A stretch of DNA of 64,000 bases, from NCBI RefSeq assembly GCF_003334335.1, contig NZ_QOWQ01000019.1. One strand, 5' to 3'. Source of the stretch: Escherichia coli. GTDB taxonomy: Bacteria > Pseudomonadota > Gammaproteobacteria > Enterobacterales > Enterobacteriaceae. Positions 16,405 through 39,089 of the stretch are shown here, piece after piece. The notes beneath the pieces are model-generated. The model did no database searches. It worked only from the letters and a program-made list of their open reading frames with translations, and was not told the origin of the DNA. Position 1 is the stretch's first letter. The number at the start of each line of letters is the position of its first letter. The position numbers and the translations under genes were made by a program.

Positions 16405-16407
16405 CAC

Positions 16408-18043: not shown

Positions 18044-18050
18044 CATCACC

Positions 18051-18236: not shown

Positions 18237-20872
18237 TGTTTTTCCTCACACTCTTTTCCTTGCGGACAGTCATTTCCCGGCAGACGTGCGTTCTGCTCCA
18301 GCCATGCCTGGAGATTATCGCCAAAGCGTAAACTGCGCCACAGCGTAAAAATATTCTCTTCATGATGGTAATTAAGGTTTACCGTACCGCTTTTACCATC
18401 AACGCGACTGGTACCTGTAATGTTGGCCTGCATGGTTAATAAACCGAGATTATCTAAATTAATTTTTGTCGATGAACGGCTAATTTCCATATAGCGCAAC
18501 CAGTTAATTGCTGAACCTGCAGTCATATTGTCTTTTACAACCGCATCCGCAGTGTCTTTATCCAGTCGCAATGTCATCGGCCCGCTATTCGCCAGCCAGC
18601 CATCTTTCACAATCCATTTTTCATTGTTCAGCCATAACGGCAGTGCACCACTAAATGCCCCGGACATGGCGAATTGTTTCGGATTGACGGCGCTAACCAG
18701 TTCGCTGGATGAGAGATTATTCAGCCGCAACAGCGCCGGGTCATGTTGCGGCATACGTAATTGTTTCATCAGTACGTTACCGCCTAACACATCGACGCTA
18801 ACATCAGTCAACAGCAAGGGTTCTTCTTCAGTCCACGGATAACGCCCTTGCAAATCAGCCGTAATATTTTTCGCTGTCACCAGATTAATCACTTCGGCAA
18901 TTCGCAACGTAACGGGGCCGCGAGTCCCCAGATGCCAGGCTCCATCGGCAAAACGGAAAGGCAGGACAAAATCGACACCGTTAACCTGATTATCTGGCAT
19001 CCAGGCACTACCGCCTTTCAACACGCCGTGTCCTCCCGCGCGGAATCCTTGTTCAGGCGCAGCAGAAAATGCAACCTGAGCATACAGTTCACCATCGCGT
19101 AAGTTCATCTTCCAGTCGGGTGGCACCAGCGGCTGGAATACGGTCAGTGATTGTTTAGGCCACCAGGCGTTACCGCGCAGACGAATACCGTCCCAGCGAC
19201 CATTTACCCGAACCGGGCCAATCTCACCAGCATGTAAATCGCCTTTAAAGAGGAAATAGGTAGGATCGCGCCCATCGACGCTAAATTTTAAGGTTGATGG
19301 CGGTAACACACTGCCGCCAGTGAACAGCGTTTGCCCGGCGTCCAGTGACAGCGCGCCGCTAAAGGAGGGATGCTGTGCGTCACGTACCCAGACGATGGGC
19401 TTGTCGAGAATTAATCGCGGCTTTTCTACCGTCATCGTACCGTATTGTAACTGGTCGAAACCGGTGGAGAGATCGGTCAGCGTAATCGTGCTGTCATGCC
19501 ACTCACCTTTTCCTGCGACATCCCAGGTGGCATTCATCGGTGTAAAACTCCCTTTTCCCCAGTAGCGCCACTGCCAGCGGCCAGCGTCAGGGAGAAAATC
19601 ATTCGCCAGCCCATCCATATGCAGCACGAAATCGCCCAGTTCATTTTCATGCGCCTGCAAGATGGCCTGCAAACGTCCGTCAACACCACGTTGGGTGACT
19701 TTTACACCCGCTAAAGGCCAGCGGATTTCATCGATGTCCAGCGAATCGATGACTCTTCCCTTTGAACGAAGTAACGCGCCTGGCTCAAAGGTCAGCGTTG
19801 GGTCAGACAGACTTCCACTTAGCTGCGCAGGTAAACGGGCATATAAAATGAGGTCCGCCTGTTTCGCTTCACCGGTCAGCTGCAGAGGCAGCTGACTGTT
19901 ATCCATGCTTAATTTTCCTGGGCCAAAATTAAGCACCGCGTTGCCCTTACCCGCTTGCCCCTGGGTCAGCACACTCAGTCGTCCGCTGACCAGAGCGTTC
20001 TCAAGCCCTGCCTGCCAGTTGTCGACTTTGACACCCAGTCGGCCACTCAAAGGAAAACCTGCATACGGCCAGCTCCAGCGACCATCGCTTACGGTCAATT
20101 GTTGACGAGTAATTTGCCACGGCAAATCGAGCAACGGATCGCCGTTATCCCGTGCCAGCACGATCAATTGCCCGCTATTTTCCTGCCAGTCCAGCTCGGC
20201 ATCCACCAGTGACGGTTCCTGCGGCAAGTTTAACGTCGCAGTAGCATGCCCACTTACAGGAAGTCCATCCGGCACGAGCGGCATAGCAAATTCCCCCACC
20301 AGTTTTACCGGCGGCTGATTTTCAAACGCGACGACATCCAGTTCGCTGACTGTAAGTTGTTGCCCTTTCAGCTGGCCTTGAAATTTAACTTTTTCGCCCT
20401 GATAACGCAGTTGCTGGATATCAGAGGTTAATGCGAGAGAGAGTTTTCCCTGCCATTCCTGCCAGGGAGAAAAAATCAGTTTATCGATATTGATCCAGGT
20501 GTTAGGCAGCATGGCCTGCCACTGCGCGAGTGTTTTTGGAGCGGCTGGCGATTGCTCCGTCTGCGGCAATTTCGCCAGACAAGCAGAATCAAGTTCTACC
20601 GTGCCGACGTTCAATAACCAGCGGCTGGGATGTGAAAGGCTGGCGTTGGTGATATGCGCAAGCTGACAATCTCCCACCAGATAACGGAGATCGGGAATGA
20701 TTAAACCTTTACGCGTAATGCGTGGGCTTTCATCTAATGCAATACGTGTCCCGAGCGGTAGCCAGATGCCCGCCAGCGTGGGAACCCACAGCCCGAGCGT
20801 CATCAGCAGCGTCAACGGCACAAGAATAATCAGTAATAACAGCGCGAGAACGGCTTTATATTTACCCAGCAT
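18233..20872 (-). CDS. ydbH: YdbH, AsmA-family large envelope protein
   Basis: 879-aa ORF with an N-terminal transmembrane anchor (MLGKYKAVLALLLLIILVPLTLLMTLGLWV) in conserved position upstream of ynbE and ydbL. Confidence 0.85.
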   Translation of the reverse strand: MLGKYKAVLALLLLIILVPLTLLMTLGLWVPTLAGIWLPLGTRIALDESPRITRKGLIIPDLRYLVGDCQLAHITNASLSHPSRWLLNVGTVELDSACLAKLPQTEQSPAAPKTLAQWQAMLPNTWINIDKLIFSPWQEWQGKLSLALTSDIQQLRYQGEKVKFQGQLKGQQLTVSELDVVAFENQPPVKLVGEFAMPLVPDGLPVSGHATATLNLPQEPSLVDAELDWQENSGQLIVLARDNGDPLLDLPWQITRQQLTVSDGRWSWPYAGFPLSGRLGVKVDNWQAGLENALVSGRLSVLTQGQAGKGNAVLNFGPGKLSMDNSQLPLQLTGEAKQADLILYARLPAQLSGSLSDPTLTFEPGALLRSKGRVIDSLDIDEIRWPLAGVKVTQRGVDGRLQAILQAHENELGDFVLHMDGLANDFLPDAGRWQWRYWGKGSFTPMNATWDVAGKGEWHDSTITLTDLSTGFDQLQYGTMTVEKPRLILDKPIVWVRDAQHPSFSGALSLDAGQTLFTGGSVLPPSTLKFSVDGRDPTYFLFKGDLHAGEIGPVRVNGRWDGIRLRGNAWWPKQSLTVFQPLVPPDWKMNLRDGELYAQVAFSAAPEQGFRAGGHGVLKGGSAWMPDNQVNGVDFVLPFRFADGAWHLGTRGPVTLRIAEVINLVTAKNITADLQGRYPWTEEEPLLLTDVSVDVLGGNVLMKQLRMPQHDPALLRLNNLSSSELVSAVNPKQFAMSGAFSGALPLWLNNEKWIVKDGWLANSGPMTLRLDKDTADAVVKDNMTAGSAINWLRYMEISRSSTKINLDNLGLLTMQANITGTSRVDGKSGTVNLNYHHEENIFTLWRSLRFGDNLQAWLEQNARLPGNDCPQGKECEEKQ

Positions 20873-21079
20873 GGGTAGTTAATATCCTGATTTAGCGAAA
20901 AATTAAGCATTCAATACGGGTATTGTGGCATGTTTAACCGTTCAGTTGAAGGTTGCGCCTACACTAAGCATAGTTGTTGATGAATTTTTCAATATCGCCA
21001 TAGCTTTCAATTAAATTTGAAATTTTGTAAAATATTTTTAGTAGCTTAAATGTGATTCAACATCACTGGAGAAAGTCTT

Positions 21080-22069
21080 ATGAAACTCGCCGTTTATAGC
21101 ACAAAACAGTACGACAAGAAGTACCTGCAACAGGTGAACGAGTCCTTTGGCTTTGAGCTGGAATTTTTTGACTTTCTGCTGACGGAAAAAACCGCTAAAA
21201 CTGCCAATGGCTGCGAAGCGGTATGTATTTTCGTAAACGATGACGGCAGCCGCCCGGTGCTGGAAGAGCTGAAAAAGCACGGCGTTAAATATATCGCCCT
21301 GCGCTGTGCCGGTTTCAATAACGTCGACCTTGACGCGGCAAAAGAACTGGGGCTGAAAGTAGTCCGTGTTCCAGCCTATGATCCAGAGGCCGTTGCTGAA
21401 CACGCCATCGGTATGATGATGACGCTGAACCGCCGTATTCACCGCGCGTATCAGCGTACCCGTGATGCTAACTTCTCTCTGGAAGGTCTGACCGGCTTTA
21501 CTATGTATGGCAAAACGGCAGGCGTTATCGGTACCGGTAAAATCGGTGTGGCGATGCTGCGCATTCTGAAAGGTTTTGGTATGCGTCTGCTGGCGTTCGA
21601 TCCGTATCCAAGTGCAGCGGCGCTGGAACTCGGTGTGGAGTATGTCGATCTGCCAACCCTGTTCTCTGAATCAGACGTTATCTCTCTGCACTGCCCGCTG
21701 ACACCGGAAAACTATCATCTGTTGAACGAAGCCGCCTTCGAACAGATGAAAAATGGCGTGATGATCGTCAATACCAGTCGCGGTGCATTGATTGATTCTC
21801 AGGCAGCAATTGAAGCGCTGAAAAATCAGAAAATTGGTTCGTTGGGTATGGACGTGTATGAGAACGAACGCGATCTATTCTTTGAAGATAAATCCAACGA
21901 CGTGATCCAGGATGACGTATTCCGTCGCCTGTCTGCCTGCCACAACGTGCTGTTTACCGGGCACCAGGCATTCCTGACAGCAGAAGCTCTGACCAGTATT
22001 TCTCAGACTACGCTGCAAAACTTAAGCAATCTGGAAAAAGGCGAAACCTGCCCGAACGAACTGGTTTAA
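21080..22069 (+). CDS. ldhA: LdhA, fermentative NAD-dependent D-lactate dehydrogenase
   Basis: 329-aa ORF beginning MKLAVYSTKQYDKKYLQQVNESFGFELEFFDFLLTEKTAKTANGCEAVCIFVNDD, of the 2-hydroxyacid dehydrogenase family. Confidence 0.95.
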   Translation: MKLAVYSTKQYDKKYLQQVNESFGFELEFFDFLLTEKTAKTANGCEAVCIFVNDDGSRPVLEELKKHGVKYIALRCAGFNNVDLDAAKELGLKVVRVPAYDPEAVAEHAIGMMMTLNRRIHRAYQRTRDANFSLEGLTGFTMYGKTAGVIGTGKIGVAMLRILKGFGMRLLAFDPYPSAAALELGVEYVDLPTLFSESDVISLHCPLTPENYHLLNEAAFEQMKNGVMIVNTSRGALIDSQAAIEALKNQKIGSLGMDVYENERDLFFEDKSNDVIQDDVFRRLSACHNVLFTGHQAFLTAEALTSISQTTLQNLSNLEKGETCPNELV

Positions 22070-22179
22070 TCTTGCCGCTCCCCTGCATTCCAGGGGAGCT
22101 GATTCAGATAATCCCCAATGACCTTTCATCCTCTATTCTTAAAATAGTCCTGAGTCAGAAACTGTAATTGAGAACCACA

Positions 22180-22602
22180 ATGAAGAAAGTAGCCGCGTTT
22201 GTTGCGCTAAGCCTGCTGATGGCGGGATGTGTAAGTAATGACAAAATTGCTGTTACGCCAGAACAGCTACAGCATCATCGCTTTGTGCTGGAAAGCGTAA
22301 ACGGTAAGCCCGTGACCAGCGATAAAAATCCGCCAGAAATCAGCTTTGGTGAAAAAATGATGATTTCCGGCAGCATGTGTAACCGCTTTAGCGGTGAAGG
22401 CAAACTGTCTAATGGTGAACTGACAGCCAAAGGGCTGGCAATGACCCGTATGATGTGCGCTAACCCGCAGCTTAATGAACTCGATAACACCATTAGCGAA
22501 ATGCTGAAAGAAGGTGCACAAGTGGATCTGACCGCGAACCAGTTAACGCTGGCGACCGCAAAACAGACATTAACTTATAAGCTGGCGGATTTAATGAATT
22601 AA
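22180..22602 (+). CDS. hslJ: HslJ, heat-inducible lipoprotein
   Basis: ORF with lipoprotein signal MKKVAAFVALSLLMAGC (140 aa from the internal Met; the longest ORF starts at 22168). Confidence 0.85.
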   Translation: MKKVAAFVALSLLMAGCVSNDKIAVTPEQLQHHRFVLESVNGKPVTSDKNPPEISFGEKMMISGSMCNRFSGEGKLSNGELTAKGLAMTRMMCANPQLNELDNTISEMLKEGAQVDLTANQLTLATAKQTLTYKLADLMN

Positions 22603-22865
22603 TAGCTGCCACAGCTCCCGGCGGCAAGTGACTGTTCGCTACAGCGTTTGCCGTTGGGTAATGCACACATCCCAATCGCCGTACCATCCAGTTGACGGGC
22701 AACAGAAAGCGAACCGCCGATCATTGCACAATTTGCTTCTCCACTACTGGACATCGACGCTTTTAAACCTGGCGCTACGTGCGCGGCAGTCGCCTGCTGA
22801 ACAGGTTCACTACTACACGCCGACAACAATAAAGCGGCACACCCTACCCAAAACGCTGCTCGCAT
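22599..22865 (-). CDS. ydbJ: YdbJ, small lipoprotein (DUF333)
   Basis: 88-aa ORF with a lipobox (MRAAFWVGCAALLLSAC). Confidence 0.75.
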   Translation of the reverse strand: MRAAFWVGCAALLLSACSSEPVQQATAAHVAPGLKASMSSSGEANCAMIGGSLSVARQLDGTAIGMCALPNGKRCSEQSLAAGSCGSY

Positions 22866-23138
22866 CTTTTCTTCCTCTGATCTTCAAGCCAAACGACACC
22901 GCCATAAATAATAGGCAGCACAGAGGGCGGCGTCGAGAGCTGTCCTGCGCGTTGCCCCGCATTTTTACTTTTTTATGGCTATTTTTTTGCCCTCTGTTTG
23001 ATCAAAACATTCATTACGCTGATGTGGGGGACACAAAAGCGAAAATGCAGAAGAAAGCCATTTGCTAAAATTGAAAGATTACTACTGGGCGCGCAGCAAT
23101 TTCGTGCGCCCCTCATTTGCGCAATGTAAGGGTGTCAT

Positions 23139-26100
23139 ATGATTACTATTGACGGTAATGGCGCGGTTGCTTCGGTCGCATTTCGCACCAGTGAAGTTAT
23201 CGCCATCTACCCTATTACCCCCAGTTCCACGATGGCAGAACAGGCTGATGCCTGGGCCGGAAACGGCTTAAAGAACGTTTGGGGAGACACACCACGCGTG
23301 GTTGAAATGCAGTCGGAAGCGGGTGCTATCGCTACCGTGCATGGCGCTTTGCAGACGGGTGCCCTTTCAACATCGTTTACGTCATCGCAGGGTTTGCTGC
23401 TGATGATCCCGACGCTGTACAAACTGGCAGGCGAACTAACACCGTTTGTCCTGCATGTAGCGGCACGTACCGTTGCCACACATGCACTCTCTATTTTTGG
23501 CGATCATTCCGACGTTATGGCGGTGCGCCAGACGGGTTGCGCGATGTTGTGTGCAGCAAACGTCCAGGAAGCGCAAGACTTTGCTCTCATTTCGCAAATC
23601 GCGACGCTGAAAAGCCGCGTGCCATTTATTCATTTCTTTGATGGTTTCCGCACGTCCCACGAAATCAATAAAATTGTCCCGCTGGCCGATGACACGATTC
23701 TTGATCTCATGCCGCAGGTCGAAATTGATGCTCATCGCGCCCGGGCACTCAACCCGGAACATCCGGTGATCCGCGGTACGTCCGCCAATCCTGACACTTA
23801 TTTCCAGTCTCGCGAAGCCACCAACCCATGGTACAACGCGGTCTATGACCATGTTGAACAGGCGATGAATGATTTCTCTGCCGCGACAGGTCGTCAGTAT
23901 CAGCCGTTTGAATATTACGGGCATCCGCAAGCGGAACGGGTGATTATCCTGATGGGCTCTGCCATTGGCACCTGTGAAGAAGTGGTTGATGAATTGCTAA
24001 CCCGTGGCGAAAAAGTTGGCGTGCTGAAAGTTCGCCTGTACCGCCCCTTCTCCGCTAAACATTTACTGCAAGCTCTGCCGGGATCCGTACGCAGCGTGGC
24101 GGTACTGGACAGAACCAAAGAACCCGGTGCCCAGGCAGAACCGCTCTATCTGGATGTAATGACCGCACTGGCAGAAGCCTTTAATAATGGCGAGCGCGAA
24201 ACTCTGCCCCGTGTCATTGGTGGGCGCTATGGTCTTTCATCCAAAGAATTTGGCCCAGACTGTGTACTGGCGGTATTTGCCGAGCTCAACGCGGCTAAAC
24301 CGAAAGCGCGCTTTACGGTTGGTATTTACGATGATGTGACCAATCTGTCACTGCCGTTGCCGGAAAACACCCTGCCAAACTCGGCGAAACTGGAAGCCTT
24401 GTTTTATGGCCTTGGTAGTGATGGCAGCGTTTCCGCGACCAAAAACAATATCAAGATTATCGGTAATTCCACGCCGTGGTACGCACAGGGCTATTTTGTT
24501 TACGACTCCAAAAAGGCGGGCGGCCTGACGGTTTCTCACCTTCGAGTGAGCGAACAGCCGATTCGTTCCGCTTATCTCATTTCCCAGGCTGATTTTGTTG
24601 GCTGCCACCAGTTGCAGTTTATCGATAAATATCAGATGGCTGAGCGTTTAAAACCTGGCGGCATTTTCCTGCTCAACACGCCGTACAGCGCAGATGAAGT
24701 GTGGTCGCGCTTGCCGCAAGAAGTTCAGGCCGTGTTAAACCAGAAAAAAGCGCGCTTCTATGTGATTAACGCGGCGAAAATCGCCCGCGAATGTGGCCTG
24801 GCGGCCCGTATTAATACCGTCATGCAGATGGCTTTTTTCCATCTGACGCAAATTCTGCCTGGCGATAGCGCCCTCGCAGAATTGCAGGGTGCGATTGCCA
24901 AAAGTTACAGTAGCAAAGGCCAGGATCTGGTGGAACGCAACTGGCAGGCTCTGGCGCTGGCGCGTGAATCCGTAGAAGAAGTTCCGTTGCAACCGGTAAA
25001 TCCGCACAGCGCCAATCGACCGCCAGTGGTTTCCGATGCCGCCCCTGATTTCGTGAAAACCGTAACCGCTGCGATGCTCGCCGGGCTTGGTGACGCCCTC
25101 CCCGTTTCGGCGCTGCCGCCAGACGGCACCTGGCCGATGGGCACTACGCGCTGGGAAAAACGCAATATCGCCGAAGAGATCCCCATCTTGAAAGAGGAAC
25201 TCTGTACCCAATGTAACCACTGCGTTGCCGCTTGCCCACACTCAGCTATTCGCGCAAAAGTGGTGCCGCCTGAAGCGATGGAAAACGCCCCTGCCAGCCT
25301 GCATTCGCTGGATGTGAAATCGCGTGATATGCGCGGGCAGAAATATGTCTTGCAGGTGGCACCGGAAGATTGCACCGGTTGTAACCTGTGCGTCGAAGTT
25401 TGCCCGGCGAAAGACCGTCAGAATCCAGAGATTAAAGCCATCAATATGATGTCTCGCCTGGAACATGTCGAAGAAGAGAAAATCAATTACGATTTCTTCC
25501 TCAACCTGCCAGAAATCGACCGTAGCAAACTGGAACGTATTGATATTCGTACATCGCAGCTGATTACACCGCTGTTTGAATATTCAGGTGCTTGCTCCGG
25601 TTGTGGCGAGACGCCGTATATTAAATTACTGACTCAGCTCTATGGCGACCGGATGTTGATCGCTAACGCCACTGGCTGTTCTTCAATTTATGGCGGTAAC
25701 CTGCCCTCTACACCGTATACCACCGATGCCAACGGTCGTGGGCCGGCATGGGCGAACTCTCTATTTGAAGATAATGCCGAATTTGGCCTTGGTTTCCGCC
25801 TGACGGTCGATCAACACCGTGTCCGCGTGCTGCGTCTGCTGGATCAATTTGCCGATAAAATCCCGGCGGAATTACTGACGGCGTTGAAATCAGACGCCAC
25901 GCCAGAGGTTCGTCGTGAACAGGTTGCAGCTTTACGCCAGCAACTCAACGATGTTGCCGAAGCACATGAACTGCTACGTGATGCAGATGCACTGGTGGAA
26001 AAATCAATCTGGCTGATTGGTGGTGATGGCTGGGCTTACGATATCGGCTTTGGCGGTCTGGATCATGTATTGAGTTTGACGGAAAACGTCAACATTCTGG

Positions 26101-26663
26101 TGCTGGATACGCAATGCTATTCCAACACCGGTGGTCAGGCGTCGAAAGCGACACCGCTGGGTGCAGTAACTAAATTTGGCGAGCACGGCAAACGTAAAGC
26201 GCGTAAAGATCTTGGCGTCAGTATGATGATGTACGGTCATGTTTATGTGGCGCAGATTTCTCTCGGCGCGCAGCTGAACCAGACGGTGAAAGCGATTCAG
26301 GAAGCGGAAGCGTATCCGGGGCCATCGCTGATCATTGCTTATAGCCCGTGTGAAGAGCATGGTTACGATCTGGCACTCAGCCACGACCAGATGCGCCAAC
26401 TCACAGCTACCGGCTTCTGGCCGCTATATCGCTTTGATCCGCGTCGTGCCGATGAAGGCAAACTGCCGCTGGCCTTGGATTCACGCCCGCCGTCAGAAGC
26501 ACTGGAAGAAACGTTACTTCACGAGCAACGTTTCCGTCGGCTGAATTCGCAGCAGCCAGAAGTGGCAGAACAGTTATGGAAAGATGCTGCAGCTGATTTG
26601 CAAAAACGCTATGACTTCCTGGCACAAATGGCCGGAAAAGCGGAAAAAAGCAACACCGATTAA
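23139..26663 (+). CDS. ydbK: Pyruvate:flavodoxin/ferredoxin oxidoreductase (PFOR)
   Basis: 1174-aa ORF with 4Fe-4S ferredoxin Cys motifs (CTQCNHCVAACP, CTGCNLCVEVCP) and a thiamine-pyrophosphate-binding region (GGDGWAYDIGFGG). Confidence 0.95.
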   Translation: MITIDGNGAVASVAFRTSEVIAIYPITPSSTMAEQADAWAGNGLKNVWGDTPRVVEMQSEAGAIATVHGALQTGALSTSFTSSQGLLLMIPTLYKLAGELTPFVLHVAARTVATHALSIFGDHSDVMAVRQTGCAMLCAANVQEAQDFALISQIATLKSRVPFIHFFDGFRTSHEINKIVPLADDTILDLMPQVEIDAHRARALNPEHPVIRGTSANPDTYFQSREATNPWYNAVYDHVEQAMNDFSAATGRQYQPFEYYGHPQAERVIILMGSAIGTCEEVVDELLTRGEKVGVLKVRLYRPFSAKHLLQALPGSVRSVAVLDRTKEPGAQAEPLYLDVMTALAEAFNNGERETLPRVIGGRYGLSSKEFGPDCVLAVFAELNAAKPKARFTVGIYDDVTNLSLPLPENTLPNSAKLEALFYGLGSDGSVSATKNNIKIIGNSTPWYAQGYFVYDSKKAGGLTVSHLRVSEQPIRSAYLISQADFVGCHQLQFIDKYQMAERLKPGGIFLLNTPYSADEVWSRLPQEVQAVLNQKKARFYVINAAKIARECGLAARINTVMQMAFFHLTQILPGDSALAELQGAIAKSYSSKGQDLVERNWQALALARESVEEVPLQPVNPHSANRPPVVSDAAPDFVKTVTAAMLAGLGDALPVSALPPDGTWPMGTTRWEKRNIAEEIPILKEELCTQCNHCVAACPHSAIRAKVVPPEAMENAPASLHSLDVKSRDMRGQKYVLQVAPEDCTGCNLCVEVCPAKDRQNPEIKAINMMSRLEHVEEEKINYDFFLNLPEIDRSKLERIDIRTSQLITPLFEYSGACSGCGETPYIKLLTQLYGDRMLIANATGCSSIYGGNLPSTPYTTDANGRGPAWANSLFEDNAEFGLGFRLTVDQHRVRVLRLLDQFADKIPAELLTALKSDATPEVRREQVAALRQQLNDVAEAHELLRDADALVEKSIWLIGGDGWAYDIGFGGLDHVLSLTENVNILVLDTQCYSNTGGQASKATPLGAVTKFGEHGKRKARKDLGVSMMMYGHVYVAQISLGAQLNQTVKAIQEAEAYPGPSLIIAYSPCEEHGYDLALSHDQMRQLTATGFWPLYRFDPRRADEGKLPLALDSRPPSEALEETLLHEQRFRRLNSQQPEVAEQLWKDAAADLQKRYDFLAQMAGKAEKSNTD

Positions 26664-26692
26664 ATGCTCTGGATAAGGATTATCCAATTCTA

Positions 26693-26802
26693 AAAAAAAA
26701 GCCCGGACGACTGTTCGGGCTTGTCTTTTTATATGTTGGAAAATCAGTGGCAATGCAATGGCCCAACAGAAAATAAAATCTGTGACAATAAAGGCATATA
26801 AC
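26693..26802 (-). ncRNA. micC: MicC, Hfq-dependent sRNA repressing ompC
   Basis: The reverse complement reads GTTATATGCCTTTATTGTCACAGATTTTATTTTCTGTTGGGCC...AAGCCCGAACAGTCGTCCGGGCTTTTTTT, matching MicC as recalled, in the conserved ompN-ydbK intergenic position; the terminator hairpin also serves ydbK on the + strand. Confidence 0.85.
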
Positions 26803-27029
26803 CCGCGCAGAATAACGTATAGCAAATTAAAAGTATAATTTTTATTTTGTATGTATTATCTTCGATACATTCACCAGACTTATTATCATTTCAGAGGAAT
26901 TATTTGATTAAGGTTTTACTTAAGGCGTAACAAATGATATTTATCGGCTAACTGAACTTCTCCTTTAGGATGTTTTCACTCCCCGAAATGGGGATAAAAG
27001 GCAAATAAAATAACTAAAGGATTTATTCA

Positions 27030-28163
27030 ATGAAAAGCAAAGTACTGGCACTTTTAATTCCTGCCCTGCTCGCCGCAGGTGCTGCACATGCAGCCGAAGT
27101 TTATAATAAAGACGGCAACAAATTAGATCTGTATGGCAAAGTTGATGGCCTGCATTATTTTTCTGATAATTCAGCGAAAGATGGCGACCAGAGCTATGCG
27201 CGTCTGGGTTTTAAAGGCGAAACCCAAATTAACGATCAACTCACTGGCTACGGTCAATGGGAATACAATATTCAGGCAAACAACACTGAATCTTCAAAAA
27301 ACCAGTCATGGACCCGTCTGGCATTTGCCGGGCTGAAATTTGCAGATTACGGTTCTTTCGATTACGGACGTAATTATGGCGTAATGTACGACATCGAAGG
27401 CTGGACCGATATGCTGCCTGAATTTGGCGGTGACTCTTATACCAATGCAGACAACTTTATGACTGGTCGAGCCAATGGCGTCGCGACTTATCGTAATACT
27501 GATTTCTTCGGTCTGGTAAATGGTCTGAACTTCGCGGTGCAGTATCAAGGTAACAACGAAGGAGCCAGTAATGGTCAGGAAGGCACCAACAACGGACGTG
27601 ATGTTCGCCATGAAAACGGTGACGGCTGGGGTCTTTCCACAACATATGATTTAGGCATGGGCTTTAGCGCTGGTGCGGCATACACCTCTTCTGACCGCAC
27701 CAATGACCAGGTTAACCATACTGCGGCGGGTGGTGATAAAGCAGACGCGTGGACTGCTGGGCTAAAATACGATGCTAACAATATTTACCTGGCAACCATG
27801 TATTCAGAAACGCGTAATATGACCCCGTTTGGCGACAGCGATTATGCTGTGGCAAACAAAACCCAGAATTTTGAAGTCACTGCACAGTACCAGTTTGATT
27901 TTGGTCTGCGTCCGGCAGTCTCTTTCCTGATGTCTAAAGGCCGTGACCTGCACGCTGCGGGTGGTGCAGACAACCCGGCAGGTGTTGATGATAAAGATCT
28001 GGTTAAATACGCCGATATTGGCGCGACTTACTATTTCAATAAAAACATGTCCACCTACGTTGACTATAAAATCAACCTGTTGGATGAAGATGACAGCTTC
28101 TACGCTGCCAATGGCATCTCTACCGATGATATTGTCGCTTTAGGTCTGGTTTATCAGTTCTAA
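27030..28163 (+). CDS. ompN: OmpN, OmpC/OmpF-family general porin
   Basis: 377-aa ORF with signal peptide [21 protein letters not shown] and a porin C-terminus ending LVYQF. Confidence 0.9.
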
Positions 28164-28172
28164 ATCCTCCTG

Positions 28173-28196
28173 CCCGCTGTTATGGCGGGCTTTTTC
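28173..28196 (+). terminator. Intrinsic terminator after ompN
   Basis: gcccgc-tgttat-ggcgggc followed by ttttt. Confidence 0.7.
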
Positions 28197-28222
28197 TGCT
28201 TATTCTTCCTCCTTTGATCTAA

Positions 28223-28738
<516 letters not shown>

Positions 28739-28745
28739 CACTAAC

Positions 28746-28771
28746 GCCCGCACATTGCTGCGGGCTTTTTG
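28746..28771 (+). terminator. Intrinsic terminator after uspF
   Basis: gcccgca-cattgc-tgcgggc followed by ttttt. Confidence 0.7.
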
Positions 28772-28914
28772 ATTCATTTCGCAAATGTGCTGACATTTTC
28801 CCCTCTAATCCGTACCATACACGCCACAGTTTTTTATATCAGATTTCTTATGCTGGGCGTTCCGGCATGACGCATACTCTTCTGATGCCATATAACGAAT
28901 TGAGTCGCTTTTAA

Positions 28915-29850
28915 ATGTCGCAAAATCAAGAAATTAGTAAGAAAGAACAATACAACCTGAACAAATTACAAAAACGTCTGCGTCGTAACGTGGGCGAAGC
29001 CATTGCTGACTTCAATATGATTGAAGAAGGCGATCGCATCATGGTTTGCCTCTCCGGGGGTAAAGACAGCTATACCATGCTGGAGATTCTGCGCAATTTG
29101 CAGCAAAGCGCGCCAATCAATTTTTCGCTGGTGGCTGTTAACCTCGATCAAAAGCAACCGGGCTTCCCGGAACACGTTCTGCCCGAGTATCTTGAAAAGC
29201 TGGGCGTTGAGTACAAGATTGTTGAAGAGAATACTTACGGTATCGTGAAAGAGAAGATTCCAGAGGGCAAAACCACTTGCTCACTGTGTTCTCGCCTTCG
29301 TCGCGGTATCCTTTATCGTACCGCAACGGAACTGGGGGCGACGAAGATCGCGTTGGGTCACCATCGTGACGATATCCTGCAAACGTTGTTCTTAAATATG
29401 TTCTACGGCGGTAAGATGAAAGGTATGCCTCCGAAACTGATGAGCGATGATGGCAAACATATCGTTATTCGTCCGCTGGCCTACTGCCGCGAGAAAGATA
29501 TTCAGCGATTTGCCGATGCAAAAGCGTTCCCGATTATTCCGTGCAACCTGTGCGGTTCACAGCCTAACCTGCAACGTCAGGTGATTGCTGACATGTTGCG
29601 TGACTGGGATAAACGTTATCCAGGGCGTATCGAGACGATGTTCAGCGCGATGCAGAATGTGGTGCCGTCGCATCTGTGCGATACCAACCTGTTCGATTTC
29701 AAAGGCATCACCCACGGTTCTGAAGTGGTTAACGGGGGTGATCTGGCGTTTGATCGCGAAGAGATCCCACTACAACCGGCGTGCTGGCAGCCAGAAGAAG
29801 ATGAAAATCAGTTGGATGAGTTACGGCTGAATGTGGTTGAAGTGAAATAA
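28915..29850 (+). CDS. ttcA: TtcA, tRNA 2-thiocytidine(32) synthetase
   Basis: 311-aa ORF with PP-loop SGGKDS and CxxC motifs. Its N-terminus ([17 protein letters not shown]) differs from the K-12 TtcA N-terminus as I recall it ([17 protein letters not shown]). Confidence 0.9.
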
Positions 29851-29858
29851 CCAGGATA

Positions 29859-29932
29859 GCGCCCGATGCGCAAGCGTATCGGGCTACTCTTATGGAGGCC
29901 GGATAAGACGCGGCCAGCGTCGCATCCGGCAA
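29859..29932. repeat. REP (repetitive extragenic palindromic) elements between ttcA and dbpA
   Basis: Two imperfect palindromes of REP type: gcccgatgcgcaagcgtatcgggc and gccggataagacgcggccagcgtcgcatccggc. Confidence 0.7.
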
Positions 29933-29978
29933 TCCCGAATAAGATGTTTACTCTTGCACCCGGCAATTCAACATTTCA

Positions 29979-31352
29979 TTATTTTAATAACCGCACCCGG
30001 CACGTTTTTCCTTTAATCTTCCCGCCCTGTAACTGTTTCCATGCTTTATGAGCAACAGCCTGACGGACCGCGACATAGACATGCGCCGGATGCACGGCGA
30101 TTTTGCCAATATCTGCGCCATCAAGCCCGATATCTCCTGTCAGTGCACCTAATACATCACCCGGGCGCATTTTGGCTTTTTTCCCGCCATCGATACACAA
30201 CGTTGCCATTTCTGCTTCCAGCGTCGCAATGGAACTATTAGCTGGCGGCGTTTGCCAGTTAAGTTTTATCTGCAACATGTCAGAAATGATATTGGCCCGC
30301 TGTGCTTCTTCCGGAGCACAGAAACTGATCGCCAGACCGCTATTTCCTGCACGAGCTGTACGACCGATGCGATGTACATGAACTTCAGGGTCCCACGCCA
30401 GCTCAAAGTTCACCACCAGCTCAAGCGATTTAATATCCAGACCACGCGCAGCAACATCAGTCGCGACCAGTACACGGGCGCTACCGTTAGCAAAACGTAC
30501 CAGGGTCTGATCGCGATCGCGTTGCTCCAAATCGCCGTGTAATGACAATGCACTTTGCCCTACTTCATTCAGCGCGTCGCAGACAGCCTGGCAATCTTTT
30601 TTGGTATTGCAAAACACCACGCAAGAGGATGGCTGATGCAAGCTTAATAACCGTTGCAACAGAGGAATTTTGCCTTTGCTGGATGTCTCATAAAATTGTT
30701 GTTCAATGGGTGGCAAAGCATCTGTTGAGTCAATTTCAATCGCCAAAGGATCGCGTTGCACTCGTCCGCTGATTGCAGCGATGGCTTCCGGCCAGGTTGC
30801 CGAAAACAGAAGCGTCTGTCGAGATGCAGGCGCAAAACGGATGACATCATCAATGGCATCGCTAAATCCCATATCCAGCATGCGGTCGGCCTCATCCATC
30901 ACCAGCGTATTCAACGCATCCAGTGATACCGTGCCTTTTTGCAGGTGATCCAGCAAACGCCCCGGCGTTGCCACGATAATATGCGGCGCATGTTGCAACG
31001 AATCACGCTGCATACCGAACGGTTGACCACCGCACAACGTCAAAATTTTGGTATTTGGCAGAAAACGCGCCAGCCGACGCAATTCACCTGCCACCTGATC
31101 CGCCAGTTCACGCGTAGGACACAGCACTAAAGCCTGGGTTTGAAATAGCGACGCATCAATTTGCTGTAACAAGCCGAGGCCAAAAGCCGCCGTTTTGCCG
31201 CTGCCGGTTTTCGCCTGCACGCGAACATCTTTTCCGGCAAGGATCGCCGGAAGCGCGGCGGCCTGCACCGGCGTCATGGTTAAATAACCCAACTCATTAA
31301 GGTTCGTGAGTTGGGCGGGAGGCAAAACATTCAGGGTAGAAAAAGCGGTCAC
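29979..31352 (-). CDS. dbpA: DbpA, ATP-dependent DEAD-box RNA helicase specific for 23S rRNA
   Basis: 457-aa ORF with DEAD-box motifs (AKTGSGKT, DEAD, SAT) and a C-terminal RNA-binding domain. Confidence 0.9.
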   Translation of the reverse strand: MTAFSTLNVLPPAQLTNLNELGYLTMTPVQAAALPAILAGKDVRVQAKTGSGKTAAFGLGLLQQIDASLFQTQALVLCPTRELADQVAGELRRLARFLPNTKILTLCGGQPFGMQRDSLQHAPHIIVATPGRLLDHLQKGTVSLDALNTLVMDEADRMLDMGFSDAIDDVIRFAPASRQTLLFSATWPEAIAAISGRVQRDPLAIEIDSTDALPPIEQQFYETSSKGKIPLLQRLLSLHQPSSCVVFCNTKKDCQAVCDALNEVGQSALSLHGDLEQRDRDQTLVRFANGSARVLVATDVAARGLDIKSLELVVNFELAWDPEVHVHRIGRTARAGNSGLAISFCAPEEAQRANIISDMLQIKLNWQTPPANSSIATLEAEMATLCIDGGKKAKMRPGDVLGALTGDIGLDGADIGKIAVHPAHVYVAVRQAVAHKAWKQLQGGKIKGKTCRVRLLK

Positions 31353-31612
31353 AATCTATTCTCGTGGTCATCGACGCAAAGTTAGCAGGCGCGTATCCTC
31401 GCAGATCTACGCTCACGATGCGACAATTTAATCGGTTCTTCATCGGGTGGTGGGTCAGGCATGGGTTGCGGGCGAGGGATCGGATCGGGCACTGGAACAG
31501 GATCGCCAGGAATCGGTTCAGGGACAGGAATTTGCAAATAAATAAGTGTCGTCATATTTCCCTCTGGTCATTGGGTGGACTCTTAAAGGGTAGACGCTGA
31601 TAAATAACAGGC

Positions 31613-31734
31613 AAAAAAAAGCCGACTCATCAAAGTCGGCGTCGTACGAATCAATTGTGCTATGCAGTAATTCAAAAAAGGAAGTAAGACAATATGGAGC
31701 GCAACGCCCATCGCTTGACGTTGCATTCACCTGC
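31613..31734 (-). ncRNA. fnrS: FnrS, FNR-activated Hfq-dependent sRNA
   Basis: The reverse complement reads GCAGGTGAATGCAACGTCAAGCGATGGGCGTTGCGCTCCATATTGTCTTACTTCC...GCCGACTTTGATGAGTCGGCTTTTTTTT (122 nt), in the conserved zntB-dbpA intergenic position. Confidence 0.85.
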
Positions 31735-31769
31735 AAGAGAGATATTGCCCTGAATGGGTAGAGAGTTTA

Positions 31770-31783
31770 TTGACTTCGCTCAA
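31770..31783 (-). promoter_or_regulatory. FNR box (TTGAGcgaaGTCAA) about 42 bp upstream of the fnrS 5' end
   Basis: Matches the FNR consensus TTGAT-N4-ATCAA at class II spacing relative to the inferred fnrS start. Confidence 0.75.
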
Positions 31784-31829
31784 ACTTTGCGGCGTTTTTG
31801 TATACAGACAGCCGGAAAAATTGCTTTTG

Positions 31830-32834
<1,005 letters not shown>

Positions 32835-33067
32835 TTATTTTGTAGTCTAGCCTTCTGGCCCTGTTACGCAACATCTCATCACCCCATTACCCTGAAATGA
32901 TTAATAAAATTCTGTCTAAATTGAATACAAAAAGCAAAATGCTTTTCCGTATACAAACCGTGTGAAGTGTTAAATAGCGTCTATCATTATCAGAATTATC
33001 TGATCATATGACGTGGCTTTTTTGCGATCGGATAGCAACAAAAATTGATAAAAATAACGGGATCTCA

Positions 33068-34300
33068 ATGATTACGCACAACTTCAATACCCTGGACTTA
33101 CTCACCAGTCCTGTCTGGATCGTTTCGCCCTTTGAGGAACAGTTAATTTATGCCAATAGCGCGGCGAAACTGTTGATGCAAGACCTCACGTTTAGTCAGC
33201 TACGAACCGGACCCTATTCCGTCTCCTCACAAAAAGAACTGCCGAAATACCTCTCCGATCTGCAAAACCAACACGATATTATCGAAATCCTCACTGTTCA
33301 GCGTAAAGAAGAGGAAACAGCATTGAGCTGTCGGCTTGTTTTGCGAAAGCTGACAGAAACAGAACCGGTGATTATTTTCGAAGGTATCGAAGCGCCGGCA
33401 ACGCTGGGTTTAAAAGCCAGTCGCTCGGCAAATTATCAGCGCAAAAAACAAGGTTTTTATGCGCGCTTTTTTCTGACTAACTCTGCACCAATGTTGTTGA
33501 TTGACCCGTCACGAGATGGACAAATCGTCGATGCTAACCTCGCCGCGCTCAATTTCTATGGTTATAACCATGAAACGATGTGCCAGAAACATACCTGGGA
33601 AATAAATATGCTCGGGCGTCGCGTCATGCCTATCATGCATGAAATCTCGCATTTACCCGGTGGTCATAAACCTTTGAATTTTGTTCATAAACTGGCGGAT
33701 GGTTCGACTCGTCATGTGCAGACCTATGCCGGACCGATTGAAATTTATGGCGACAAGCTCATGTTATGTATTGTGCATGATATTACTGAGCAAAAACGGC
33801 TGGAGGAGCAGCTGGAACATGCTGCTCACCATGACGCGATGACCGGATTACTGAATCGGCGACAGTTTTATCACATTACGGAACCAGGCCAAATGCAGCA
33901 TCTCGCCATCGCTCAGGATTACAGCTTGTTGCTCATCGACACCGATCGTTTTAAACACATTAACGATCTCTATGGGCATTCTAAAGGTGATGAGGTGTTA
34001 TGCGCCCTCGCCCGCACCCTCGAAAGTTGCGCTCGCAAAGGCGATTTGGTGTTTCGTTGGGGAGGCGAAGAGTTTGTCTTATTGCTACCAAGAACCCCAC
34101 TGGATACCGCGCTTTCGCTGGCTGAAACTATCCGCGTAAGCGTGGCAAAAGTGAGTATTTCGGGCTTACCACGCTTTACCGTCAGCATTGGTGTGGCGCA
34201 TCACGAAGGAAATGAAAGCATCGATGAACTGTTTAAACGCGTTGATGATGCTTTGTATCGGGCGAAAAATGATGGACGCAACCGCGTGCTGGCGGCATAA
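33068..34300 (+). CDS. dgcM: DgcM (YdaM), PAS-GGDEF diguanylate cyclase
   Basis: ORF with PAS domains and a GGEEF active site (VFRWGGEEFVLL); I placed the start at the internal Met MITHNF, giving 410 aa. Confidence 0.85.
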   Translation: MITHNFNTLDLLTSPVWIVSPFEEQLIYANSAAKLLMQDLTFSQLRTGPYSVSSQKELPKYLSDLQNQHDIIEILTVQRKEEETALSCRLVLRKLTETEPVIIFEGIEAPATLGLKASRSANYQRKKQGFYARFFLTNSAPMLLIDPSRDGQIVDANLAALNFYGYNHETMCQKHTWEINMLGRRVMPIMHEISHLPGGHKPLNFVHKLADGSTRHVQTYAGPIEIYGDKLMLCIVHDITEQKRLEEQLEHAAHHDAMTGLLNRRQFYHITEPGQMQHLAIAQDYSLLLIDTDRFKHINDLYGHSKGDEVLCALARTLESCARKGDLVFRWGGEEFVLLLPRTPLDTALSLAETIRVSVAKVSISGLPRFTVSIGVAHHEGNESIDELFKRVDDALYRAKNDGRNRVLAA

Positions 34301-34320
34301 GCCGCGGATGCGTCTCGAGA

Positions 34321-34884
34321 TCAACGACTGCGCTTAGCGTGGCGCTCCCAGTTTTCTTGCTTCGCCTGCGCCGTTTTACGTAGTGCGACGTAACACGCCC
34401 CGCTGCCGCCATGATGCGGTAGCGCGGTGCAATATGCCTGAACATCATCAAATTCGGTCAGCCAGCGCGCCACATAGCTGCGGACAATATTGGCATGCGA
34501 TTTATCATCCCGCCCTTTACCATGAATAATCAGCACGTTACGCAAACCATCCGCCAGGGCTTGTTGAATAAAACTGAACACCATTTTGCGGCACTCTTCC
34601 ACCGGCTGGCGCAAAAGATTCAGGCTCGCCTGTTGCGGATATTTACCACTGCGCAGCTTATCCAGCACCCCATGTTGCAACCCTTCCCGCCGAAACTCCA
34701 GCGGCTGACTTAGTGGGATGATGTCGAGAAATCCGGTGGTGAGGAAATTATCAAGCTGCAGCGTGTCGATACGCTGCGGCGCACGTTGGTTACGCGTTGG
34801 ATGCCAGTGGACATCGGTAGCACGTTTCAGCGGCTGGACATCTTCCATGGCGTCAAGAAACAGCGATTTGTCGTCAAGGTTCAT
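34321..34884 (-). CDS. smrA: SmrA (YdaL), Smr-domain DNA endonuclease
   Basis: 187-aa ORF with an Smr domain (LIIHGKGRD...). Confidence 0.8.
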   Translation of the reverse strand: MNLDDKSLFLDAMEDVQPLKRATDVHWHPTRNQRAPQRIDTLQLDNFLTTGFLDIIPLSQPLEFRREGLQHGVLDKLRSGKYPQQASLNLLRQPVEECRKMVFSFIQQALADGLRNVLIIHGKGRDDKSHANIVRSYVARWLTEFDDVQAYCTALPHHGGSGACYVALRKTAQAKQENWERHAKRSR

Positions 34885-35111
34885 GTTACATCCTCCCGCA
34901 ATTAAGAGCGCGATATGATAACCAGACCGGGTCGGTCCAACAACGTATTACCCAAATTTCCAGTAATAAGTTCCAAATATTGCCGATATTTTAAGCAAAA
35001 TACTTATGCATGATTATTCATTCACGATATTAATAATGTAACTTATATTTTCGTGAAATCTGTCACTGAAGAAAATTGGCAACTAAAGGTTAAAACCGTT
35101 ATAACACAGTC

Positions 35112-35206
35112 ACCGGCGCAGAGGAGACAATGCCGGATTTAAGACGCGGATGCACTGCTGTGTGTACTGTAGAGTCTGGCGGATGTCGACAGACTCTATT
35201 TTTTTA
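35112..35206 (+). ncRNA. mcaS: McaS (IsrA), Hfq/CsrA-binding sRNA
   Basis: ACCGGCGCAGAGGAGACAATGCCGGATTTAAGACGCGGATGCACTGCTGTGTGTACTGTAGAGTCTGGCGGATGTCGACAGACTCTATTTTTTT (95 nt with a terminal hairpin and T-run), in the conserved smrA-abgR intergenic position. Confidence 0.7.
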
Positions 35207-35213
35207 TGCAGTT

Positions 35214-36122
35214 TTAACTTTGCAGATAGCCGCATTCTCGCCGGAATTGCGTGATTAATGACGCGGTCAGTGGTGTCTGGCGACTATCACGCCGCTGAAT
35301 CAAATAATAGGCCGCTTTCGGTAAAATTTCGCTAACCGGCAACATCACCAGCCCCTGTCCGTGCAAGGGATCGCAGCCCATTTCTTCAGGCAGTATGCTG
35401 AGAAAATCGCTTTTTGCCACCAGACTGATACAGGCTGAGAACGTCTCGCAGACTACACCGACCTGTGGCGTTTGCGCCTGATCGTCAAGCAATTCACTCA
35501 ACTGTTTGTAGTAGCTGCCGTGTGGCGTCGGCATTGTCCAGCTGTAATCCAGTAACTGTTTGATCGAACGGGCACCAATGGCGGGGTGTCCCGGGCGGCA
35601 AAAGATCGCGAATTGCTTTTCCAGTAATTTCTCAAAAGTAAATTCGTGGTCGTACGGTCCCTGATAATAGGTATTGATGGTGAAATCCAATTCTCCCTGA
35701 CGCAATTCATTAATCATCGACACCAGTTGCCCTTCCATAATGCGTACTTTTACCTGCGGATGCTGCTGATGAAAACGAGATATGACAGCTGGCATCAGAC
35801 TGCGGGAAATACTGGCCCCCATGCCGATATTAATCTGCCCTGCCAGTTGCCCTTGTCGTTGGCGAATATCCTCTTGGGCTGCGCGCAGCTCTTCAAGAAT
35901 TAGACTGGCGTGCTGATAAAAACTTTCACCGGCATCAGTTAACGTCACGCCTTTACTACGGCGAAAAAAGAGTTGCGCCGCTAACCCTTCTTCTAGCTCC
36001 TGAATAGATTTACTCAGTGCCGGTTGCGACATATTCAACATTCGGCTCGCTCCGCGAATGCTGCCCTGACGAGCCACTTCAACAAAAGCCCGAATTTGAT
36101 GAATTTTTACCTGAAAAGCCAT
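35214..36122 (-). CDS. abgR: AbgR, LysR-family regulator of the abg operon
   Basis: 302-aa LysR-type ORF with an N-terminal helix-turn-helix, divergent from abgA. Confidence 0.85.
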   Translation of the reverse strand: MAFQVKIHQIRAFVEVARQGSIRGASRMLNMSQPALSKSIQELEEGLAAQLFFRRSKGVTLTDAGESFYQHASLILEELRAAQEDIRQRQGQLAGQINIGMGASISRSLMPAVISRFHQQHPQVKVRIMEGQLVSMINELRQGELDFTINTYYQGPYDHEFTFEKLLEKQFAIFCRPGHPAIGARSIKQLLDYSWTMPTPHGSYYKQLSELLDDQAQTPQVGVVCETFSACISLVAKSDFLSILPEEMGCDPLHGQGLVMLPVSEILPKAAYYLIQRRDSRQTPLTASLITQFRRECGYLQS

Positions 36123-36297
36123 GACGCCACCGATAACCGTTATTTATCAGACCAAAGAAACTGGCATCTACTTTAATGCAGATGATTGTGTCAGGGTAAT
36201 TTATGAACGGTTAAAACTGTGAAAAATCAGTTAGTGATAAGTAAAAACTATCGCTACGTGAACCGGGTCACACTTTTTACTGATGACGGGAAAGGTT

Positions 36298-37608
36298 ATG
36301 GAGTCTTTGAATCAATTTGTTAATTCGCTTGCCCCAAAATTATCGCACTGGCGACGTGATTTTCATCACTATGCAGAGTCTGGCTGGGTGGAATTCCGCA
36401 CTGCCACCCTTGTTGCGGAAGAATTGCACCAGCTCGGCTATTCACTGGCGCTGGGTCGCGAAGTAGTTAATGAAAGTAGCCGGATGGGATTACCTGATGA
36501 ATTCACTCTACAACGCGAATTCGAGCGCGCTCGTCAACAGGGTGCGCTAGCACAATGGATTGCGGCTTTTGAAGGTGGTTTCACTGGTATCGTCGCCACC
36601 CTGGATACCGGTCGCCCCGGTCCGGTGATGGCTTTCCGTGTCGATATGGACGCGCTGGATCTCAGTGAAGAGCAGGATGTCAGCCATCGCCCCTACCGCG
36701 ACGGTTTTGCGTCATGTAACGCCGGAATGATGCATGCCTGTGGTCATGATGGACATACCGCCATTGGGCTTGGGCTGGCGCATACCCTTAAACAGTTCGA
36801 GTCCGGACTACATGGCGTCATCAAACTGATTTTTCAGCCTGCAGAGGAAGGTACGCGTGGCGCGCGGGCGATGGTCGATGCAGGTGTCGTAGATGATGTT
36901 GATTATTTTACTGCCGTGCACATTGGCACTGGCGTACCTGCGGGCACCGTGGTGTGCGGCAGTGATAATTTTATGGCAACCACCAAATTTGACGCGCACT
37001 TCACCGGTACCGCCGCTCACGCAGGCGCAAAACCAGAAGACGGTCACAATGCCTTGTTGGCGGCAGCACAAGCCACTCTTGCACTGCATGCAATCGCCCC
37101 GCACAGCGAAGGAGCTTCCAGAGTAAACGTGGGCGTTATGCAGGCAGGAAGCGGTCGTAACGTTGTTCCTGCCTCGGCGTTGCTGAAAGTGGAAACACGC
37201 GGGGCCAGCGACGTCATTAATCAATATGTTTTTGACCGTGCACAACAAGCGATTCAGGGCGCAGCAACCATGTATGGTGTCGGCGTTGAAACTCGTCTGA
37301 TGGGTGCAGCTACCGCCAGTTCTCCTTCGCCGCAATGGGTCGCATGGTTGCAAAGTCAGGCGGCTCAGGTCGCGGGGGTCAATCAGGCCATTGAACGTGT
37401 TGAAGCGCCTGCGGGTTCCGAAGATGCCACATTAATGATGGCCCGCGTGCAGCAACATCAAGGGCAAGCCTCCTACGTGGTGTTTGGCACACAGCTGGCG
37501 GCAGGTCATCACAACGAAAAATTCGATTTTGACGAGCAGGTTCTCGCTATTGCCGTCGAAACGCTGGCGCGCACCGCGCTCAATTTTCCCTGGACGCGAG
37601 GTATCTGA
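36298..37608 (+). CDS. abgA: AbgA, p-aminobenzoyl-glutamate hydrolase subunit A (M20 peptidase)
   Basis: 436-aa M20-family amidohydrolase from the internal Met MESLNQ; the longest ORF starts at 36283. Confidence 0.85.
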   Translation: MESLNQFVNSLAPKLSHWRRDFHHYAESGWVEFRTATLVAEELHQLGYSLALGREVVNESSRMGLPDEFTLQREFERARQQGALAQWIAAFEGGFTGIVATLDTGRPGPVMAFRVDMDALDLSEEQDVSHRPYRDGFASCNAGMMHACGHDGHTAIGLGLAHTLKQFESGLHGVIKLIFQPAEEGTRGARAMVDAGVVDDVDYFTAVHIGTGVPAGTVVCGSDNFMATTKFDAHFTGTAAHAGAKPEDGHNALLAAAQATLALHAIAPHSEGASRVNVGVMQAGSGRNVVPASALLKVETRGASDVINQYVFDRAQQAIQGAATMYGVGVETRLMGAATASSPSPQWVAWLQSQAAQVAGVNQAIERVEAPAGSEDATLMMARVQQHQGQASYVVFGTQLAAGHHNEKFDFDEQVLAIAVETLARTALNFPWTRGI

Positions 37609-39053
37609 TGCAGGAAATCTATCGTTTTATCGACGATGCGATTGAAGCCGATCGCCAACGTTATACCGATATTGCCGATCAAATCTGGGATCATCCAGAA
37701 ACACGTTTTGAAGAGTTCTGGTCAGCGGAGCATCTGGCTTCGGCGCTGGAATCTGCAGGCTTCACCGTTACCCGCAACGTAGGCAATATCCCAAATGCCT
37801 TTATTGCTTCGTTTGGTCAAGGCAAACCGGTTATCGCCCTGCTGGGAGAATATGACGCCCTGGCAGGTTTAAGTCAGCAAGCAGGTTGCGCGCAACCTAC
37901 ATCCGTGACGCCCGGTGAAAATGGTCACGGTTGCGGACACAATTTGCTGGGAACCGCCGCCTTTGCCGCTGCAATAGCCGTCAAGAAATGGCTGGAACAA
38001 TATGGGCAAGGCGGCACGGTGCGCTTTTATGGTTGTCCTGGCGAAGAAGGCGGCTCGGGTAAAACGTTCATGGTTCGCGAGGGGGTATTTGATGATGTGG
38101 ATGCGGCACTCACCTGGCACCCGGAAGCCTTTGCCGGTATGTTCAATACCCGCACGCTGGCAAACATTCAGGCATCATGGCGCTTTAAAGGGATCGCAGC
38201 ACATGCCGCGAATTCCCCTCATTTGGGACGCAGCGCCCTTGATGCCGTAACGTTGATGACCACTGGCACCAACTTCCTCAACGAACATATTATTGAAAAA
38301 GCGCGCGTACACTATGCCATCACAAATAGCGGCGGGATCTCGCCCAACGTGGTCCAGGCGCAGGCAGAAGTGCTTTATCTTATCCGCGCCCCCGAAATGA
38401 CCGACGTGCAGCATATTTATGATCGGGTCGCCAAAATCGCCGAAGGTGCGGCATTGATGACCGAAACCACGGTTGAATGCCGCTTCGACAAAGCCTGTTC
38501 CAGTTATCTCCCGAATCGCACCTTAGAAAATGCCATGTACCAGGCCCTATCCCATTTTGGTACCCCGGAATGGAACTCCGAAGAACTGGCTTTTGCGAAA
38601 CAAATTCAGGCTACGCTCACCTCCAACGATCGGCAAAACAGTCTGAATAATATCGCCGCAACCGGTGGCGAAAACGGCAAGGTTTTTGCACTACGTCATC
38701 GTGAAACGGTACTGGCGAATGAAGTCGCTCCATATGCCGCCACCGATAACGTGCTTGCGGCATCGACTGATGTCGGCGACGTCAGTTGGAAACTGCCTGT
38801 TGCCCAGTGTTTCAGCCCCTGTTTTGCCGTCGGTACACCGCTACATACGTGGCAACTGGTTAGCCAGGGGCGAACATCTATTGCTCATAAAGGAATGCTG
38901 CTGGCGGCGAAAACTATGGCAGCAACCACAGTCAATCTCTTCCTTGATTCAGGGCTATTGCAAGAATGCCAACAAGAGCATCAGCAAGTAACGGACACGC
39001 AACCGTATCACTGCCCTATCCCGAAAAACGTGACACCGTCACCTTTAAAATAA
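37608..39053 (+). CDS. abgB: AbgB, p-aminobenzoyl-glutamate hydrolase subunit B (M20 peptidase)
   Basis: 481-aa M20-family ORF whose start overlaps the abgA stop (TGATG). Confidence 0.85.
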   Translation: MQEIYRFIDDAIEADRQRYTDIADQIWDHPETRFEEFWSAEHLASALESAGFTVTRNVGNIPNAFIASFGQGKPVIALLGEYDALAGLSQQAGCAQPTSVTPGENGHGCGHNLLGTAAFAAAIAVKKWLEQYGQGGTVRFYGCPGEEGGSGKTFMVREGVFDDVDAALTWHPEAFAGMFNTRTLANIQASWRFKGIAAHAANSPHLGRSALDAVTLMTTGTNFLNEHIIEKARVHYAITNSGGISPNVVQAQAEVLYLIRAPEMTDVQHIYDRVAKIAEGAALMTETTVECRFDKACSSYLPNRTLENAMYQALSHFGTPEWNSEELAFAKQIQATLTSNDRQNSLNNIAATGGENGKVFALRHRETVLANEVAPYAATDNVLAASTDVGDVSWKLPVAQCFSPCFAVGTPLHTWQLVSQGRTSIAHKGMLLAAKTMAATTVNLFLDSGLLQECQQEHQQVTDTQPYHCPIPKNVTPSPLK

Positions 39054-39089
39054 CAACAACAACGCAAACACAACAACCGAGGAATGCCC

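Follow-up and report, generated by a model that had tools for sequence, protein, structure and literature searches.

Evidence for an unoccupied attachment site of Rac-like prophages at the 5' end of ttcA in an Escherichia coli strain closely related to K-12

Introduction

The Rac prophage of Escherichia coli K-12 lies at the 5' end of ttcA and supplies the first codons of that gene, as both the MG1655 annotation and a comparison of attL with attR bear out. In a 64-kb stretch of E. coli DNA (64,000 nucleotides of contig NZ_QOWQ01000019.1, assembly GCF_003334335.1; hereafter the window), ttcA directly adjoins uspF and encodes a different N-terminus. An earlier reading of this DNA, made without database searches (the sequence-only reading), took the locus to be the attachment site as it was before Rac integrated. 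The locus raises two questions: is it an empty Rac site, and has a prophage ever occupied it?

The uspF-ttcA locus

The following features, all on the plus strand, define the locus:

28304-28738, plus strand: uspF (universal stress protein F), 144 amino acids, from the ORF and an NCBIfam model
28739-28914, plus strand: uspF-ttcA intergenic region, 176 bp, native spacer
28746-28770, plus strand: terminator-like hairpin and T-run, GCCCGCACATTGCTGCGGGC TTTTT, directly 3' of uspF, from a consensus scan
28915-29850, plus strand: ttcA, tRNA 2-thiocytidine(32) synthetase, 311 amino acids, undisrupted host form
28915-28938, plus strand: host-type first 8 codons of ttcA (MSQNQEIS), ATGTCGCAAAATCAAGAAATTAGT, from a three-way comparison of the window, K-12 attR and K-12 attL
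28939-28964, plus strand: Rac attachment core AAGAAAGAACAATACAACCTGAACAA, 26 bp, the attB crossover region, ttcA codons 9-17

UspF was assigned by a full-length match (residues 1-144) to the NCBIfam equivalog model NF011581 (302.2 bits, cut-off 166), and TtcA by the equivalog model NF007972 (513.5 bits, cut-off 272). The PP-loop domain of TtcA (Pfam PF01171) spans residues 42-204, and the translation shows the ATP-binding motif SGGKDS together with the CXXC cysteine pairs CSLC and CNLC. The K-12 counterpart of uspF, b1376, flanks the attR side of Rac. The coordinates agree with the sequence-only reading that 176 bp separate the uspF stop (28738) from the ttcA ATG (28915). These 176 bp are identical to the spacer between uspF and ttcC in MG1655, and the host ttcA promoter and 5' untranslated region should lie within them; in K-12, the spacer remains with ttcC and uspF, cut off from ttcA by Rac.

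The spacer itself holds few recognizable elements. The hairpin behind uspF has a stem of seven pairs, six of them G-C, at 28746-28765, with the T-run following, and from this structure may act as a terminator. By consensus scan, a single weak promoter-like site at 28790-28818 was no better than chance, and promoter-like sites were not enriched in the spacer (2, versus 2.8 expected from shuffled sequence). Short repeats in the spacer were at chance level, and an Rfam scan of 28739-28960 found no RNA family. The only ORF in the gap, of 66 amino acids at 28714-28914, was dismissed as purely mechanical; it is unannotated in K-12.

Comparison with K-12

In MG1655 (NC_000913.3), the "cryptic prophage Rac" is annotated at 1411899-1434958, a length of 23,060 bp. 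It is bounded by ttcA (b1344) and intR on one side, and by ttcC (b4638, a 51-nt pseudogene) followed by uspF on the other. By BLAST, window positions 9121-28964 match the uspF-side arm of K-12 and 28922-43624 match the ttcA-side arm, with 99.96% identity for the former and 99.97% for the latter (99.96-99.98% overall), the two matches overlapping at 28922-28964. The interior of Rac found no match anywhere in the 64-kb window, and the ORF list contains no integrase or other phage gene between uspF and ttcA. The sequence-only reading, which saw no phage gene in this gap and considered the roughly 23-kb element to be absent, was right on both counts.

When Rac was excised from MG1655 in silico, the product equaled window positions 26504-35394 base for base, 8.9 kb without a mismatch. 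The same junction is present in AG100, a K-12 derivative that is free of Rac. The AG100 record (NZ_LN832404.1) also contains a 461-bp duplication (excerpt 3498-3958) of the uspF-ttcA spacer and the 5' region of ttcA, with an N at one junction and ttcA split into two annotated CDS. The AG100 match has 100% coverage, in two pieces; the N-bearing duplication is most likely an assembly artefact and was not counted as biology. Only because of this record did we consider that the empty junction in the window could likewise be an artefact, from a prophage that was collapsed or omitted during assembly. We give that explanation hardly any credence: the junction is seamless, the ttcA reading frame is kept, the sequence equals the excision product that was verified by experiment, and thousands of complete genomes, sequenced independently, have the identical junction.

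The strain is not K-12 itself. Where the flanks on the two sides of attB align with MG1655 (34.5 kb), the window differs from it by 13 mismatches; IS5F is missing, and so are 7.3 kb between paaA and paaK. The deletion, of about 7.3 kb relative to MG1655, extends from the 3' end of paaA past paaJ into paaK, of which it takes the first 4 nt. It leaves a paaA-paaK fusion at 7813-9996 on the minus strand, a 727-amino acid in-frame ORF with its junction at about 9121-9122, and the strain should therefore be unable to degrade phenylacetate. Positions 43621-43624 are the empty target site of K-12 IS5F (insH4, between ynaI and ynaJ); the two K-12 matches have 4 nt in common there, in keeping with the target duplication made by IS5.

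Several other features of the window were recorded in the course of this comparison. An intact ydbA-type autotransporter ORF of 1,756 amino acids occupies 193-5463 on the minus strand, whereas ydbA of K-12 is broken into three pieces and annotated as a pseudogene. Repeats of about 366 bp, roughly 90% identical to one another, lie within the ORF, and its length is unlike that in relatives (5.8-6.1 kb there). A 102-bp difference from K-12 lies at position 5588. Three small RNAs were found at their expected K-12 positions, each above the Rfam gathering score: MicC (26685-26805, minus strand), FnrS (31617-31734, minus strand), and McaS (35112-35207, plus strand).

The attachment core and the 5' end of ttcA

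The core, AAGAAAGAACAATACAACCTGAACAA, occurs once in the 64-kb window, at 28939-28964, and twice in the K-12 Rac region, in attL and attR; a single copy is what the sequence-only reading had expected. In genomes that carry a Rac-like prophage, homology to the window breaks exactly at 28964. The interval proposed by the sequence-only reading ended at 28960, 4 nt before the end of the core.

Upstream of the core, the first eight codons differ between the two strains. The host-type sequence ATGTCGCAAAATCAAGAAATTAGT and the phage-supplied K-12 sequence ATGCAAGAAAATCAACAAATTACA (MQENQQIT) agree at 17 of 24 nt and have their start codons in register. The two TtcA proteins are identical at 307 of 311 residues, including all of residues 9-311, and differ (window to K-12) only by S2Q, Q3E, E6Q, and S8T, which sit N-terminal of the PP-loop catalytic domain. 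The K-12 N-terminus given by the sequence-only reading is exact, as judged by translation of NC_000913.3; it is not identical to that of the window, and identity does resume behind it, as had been proposed. K-12 keeps this host-type version of the first 50 nt as the ttcC pseudogene. In occupied genomes, the ttcC remnant sits next to the native upstream sequence, which identifies it as the original 5' end of ttcA. Taken together, we conclude that the window almost certainly contains the unoccupied chromosomal attB for Rac and Rac-like lambdoid prophages, located within codons 9-17 of ttcA; no observation spoke against this reading.

A model for integration

The phage attachment site, attP, holds its own, diverged version of the 50 nt with which ttcA begins, comprising a start codon, 24 diverged nucleotides, and the identical 26-bp core. 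That attP bears such a copy follows from the 17 matching nucleotides and the common start-codon register; in K-12, the diverged copy is placed 51 bp downstream of intR. Recombination inside the core by the tyrosine integrase inserts the phage and thereby replaces the first eight host codons of ttcA with phage-borne ones, exchanges the native 176-bp upstream region for a phage-borne region, and leaves the original 5' end of ttcA beside uspF as the ttcC pseudogene. We infer that the promoter itself is swapped in this process. Without a prophage, as in the window, ttcA retains its own upstream region and the N-terminus MSQNQEIS.

Phage sequences are consistent with this arrangement. The 26-bp core is annotated as attP in phage Rac-SA53 (KU052037.1), and in five IMG/VR viral contigs the 3' end of intR runs through the 24 ttcA-like nucleotides and the core straight into the opposite phage arm. 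These five contigs carry no host sequence, and thus represent the attP form. Among GenBank phages, no record spans both arms of the attP reconstructed from K-12. The apparent attP of Salmonella phage SPF_0923 (ON032529.1) was rejected, as it proved to be attR. The record includes the host genes for uspF, ompN, and pyruvate-flavodoxin oxidoreductase, and is therefore a prophage excerpt and not a packaged genome. This Rac-like prophage carries sitABC, encoding a manganese/iron ABC transporter, as cargo at 2903-5196, just inside attR.

Occupancy of the site across E. coli

The state of the site was scored in 5,426 complete E. coli genomes:

Uninterrupted uspF-ttcA junction, the state of the window: 2,489 of 5,426 (46%)
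3' end of an intR-type integrase gene joined to ttcA: 2,908 of 5,426 (54%)
Integrase-joined, with a fixed 2.3-kb remnant: 1,044 of 5,426 (19%)
Integrase-joined, with more than the remnant: 1,864 of 5,426 (34%), by subtraction
Neither state: 29, by subtraction

Given the number of uninterrupted genomes, the empty state is an ordinary one. The 2.3-kb remnant takes the place of attB between uspF and ttcA. It is made up of a metal-ABC (sit-like) permease pseudogene with a frameshift, a DUF1627 fragment, and 231 nt from the 3' end of the integrase gene; an example is found at 6312-8564 of the E. coli MS 200-1 locus, equivalent to window positions 28811-28914. In the remnant, the attR/ttcC side is deleted as far as the equivalent of window position 28810, and the phage-type N-terminus of TtcA (MQENQQIT) is therefore locked in. 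This remnant may be behind the "CFT073 exception" of Liu et al. 2015 (PMC4632033).

Gain and loss of prophages at ttcA

The paaA-paaK deletion junction provides a marker for close relatives of the strain, and is present in 5 of the 5,426 complete genomes. In four of these five (LR-29-1, GDSC2BY4G, EEC_W5, and PEC1009), a Rac-like prophage occupies the same core; in the fifth, EC416, the site is empty. Among the four prophages there are three different phage arms, and the host flanks around them are 99.9% identical or more. Compared over about 430 bp past the core, these are:

K-12/PEC1009 type: 100% identity to the K-12 arm
LR-29-1/EEC_W5 type: 97.9% identity to the K-12 arm
GDSC2BY4G type: about 90-92% identity to the K-12 arm, over 160 bp only

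With three arms at the same core on near-identical hosts, occupancy changes quickly here: prophages are gained, lost, or replaced at the ttcA site on the timescale of strain divergence, and the pattern indicates rapid prophage replacement. It also gives indirect grounds for supposing that this attB may be open to IntR-mediated integration.

Two histories could have produced the empty site in the window. In the first, the lineage once carried a Rac-like prophage and shed it when IntR/XisR excised it precisely, which would make the site a post-excision attB; we put this at a little under an even chance. The near identity of the window to Rac-carrying K-12 (99.96-99.98%) argues for such a loss, as do the four occupied sites, beside the empty one of EC416, among the five relatives with the paa deletion. 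Moreover, precise excision restores exactly the window sequence, whether in silico, in AG100, or in the experiments of Liu et al. (PMC4632033). However, the three different arms fit repeated independent integrations into an empty site equally well, and the window sequence bears no scar either way.

The second history is that the site was never occupied in this lineage and is a true pre-integration attB. The empty state in 46% of complete E. coli genomes, the varied prophage arms among close relatives, which point to independent gains, and the scarless junction all favor it, but the site is occupied in K-12 and in four of the five genomes identified here as closest, and Rac is regarded as an ancient acquisition in work cited by Liu et al. 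(PMC4632033). We consider this history, too, somewhat short of probable; loss by excision and a site never occupied are about equally likely. Thus, the designation "pre-integration attB" in the sequence-only reading stands as to attB, whereas "pre-integration" is not separable from post-excision, because the excision product is identical to the window.

Discussion

As a Rac-free close relative of K-12, the strain lacks the Rac genes, among them recET, kilR, ralRA, and trkG, and encodes the host-type isoform of TtcA. Beyond correct annotation, the importance of the finding is small. It could be imagined that occupancy is a reversible, population-level switch of TtcA isoform and promoter context, with effects on tRNA thiolation and stress tolerance that selection could act on, and not a neutral by-product of lysogeny; we regard this as improbable.

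The observation made by the sequence-only reading is real, correctly read, and already known. Liu et al. 2015 (Sci Rep 5:16074, PMC4632033) located Rac between ttcA and ttcC' and showed by induced excision that loss of the prophage alters four N-terminal residues of TtcA, the match between attL and attR being imperfect. In their comparison of 28 strains, which included the correlation with Rac occupancy, the TtcA' N-terminus (the "ancient copy") was common to Rac-free E. coli and Shigella strains. They also found that TtcA and TtcA' differ in a carbenicillin fitness assay, and renamed YdaQ, the Rac excisionase, XisR. For catalysis by IntR/XisR, and for the phenotype that goes with a change of isoform, we rely on the literature. 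The four changed residues, the remnant ttcC, and the link to occupancy were thus all in print in 2015, and the finding in the window is a correct rediscovery.

Compared with the K-12 Rac attachment sites described by Liu et al. (PMC4632033), the locus, the 26-bp core, and the four-residue difference are the same, and the protein encoded in the window is the TtcA' form. Nothing substantive differs; what is added here are the counts from 5,426 genomes and the turnover among close relatives, which update the 28-strain comparison and leave its picture unchanged. Rac-like phages and prophages, including Rac-SA53, integrate at the same ttcA core as that in the window, but these are occupied sites or phage genomes, whereas the window is without phage DNA.

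Temperate phages can integrate inside genes while carrying a substitute for the end of the gene, examples being phages at the 3' ends of tRNA genes, and P22-like phages. The ttcA site resembles these systems in that attP duplicates part of the target gene, which therefore is still functional after integration. The ttcA case departs from this general principle in that it is the 5' end that is replaced, start codon and upstream region included, by a version that has diverged (17 of 24 nt identical) and so gives another protein isoform.
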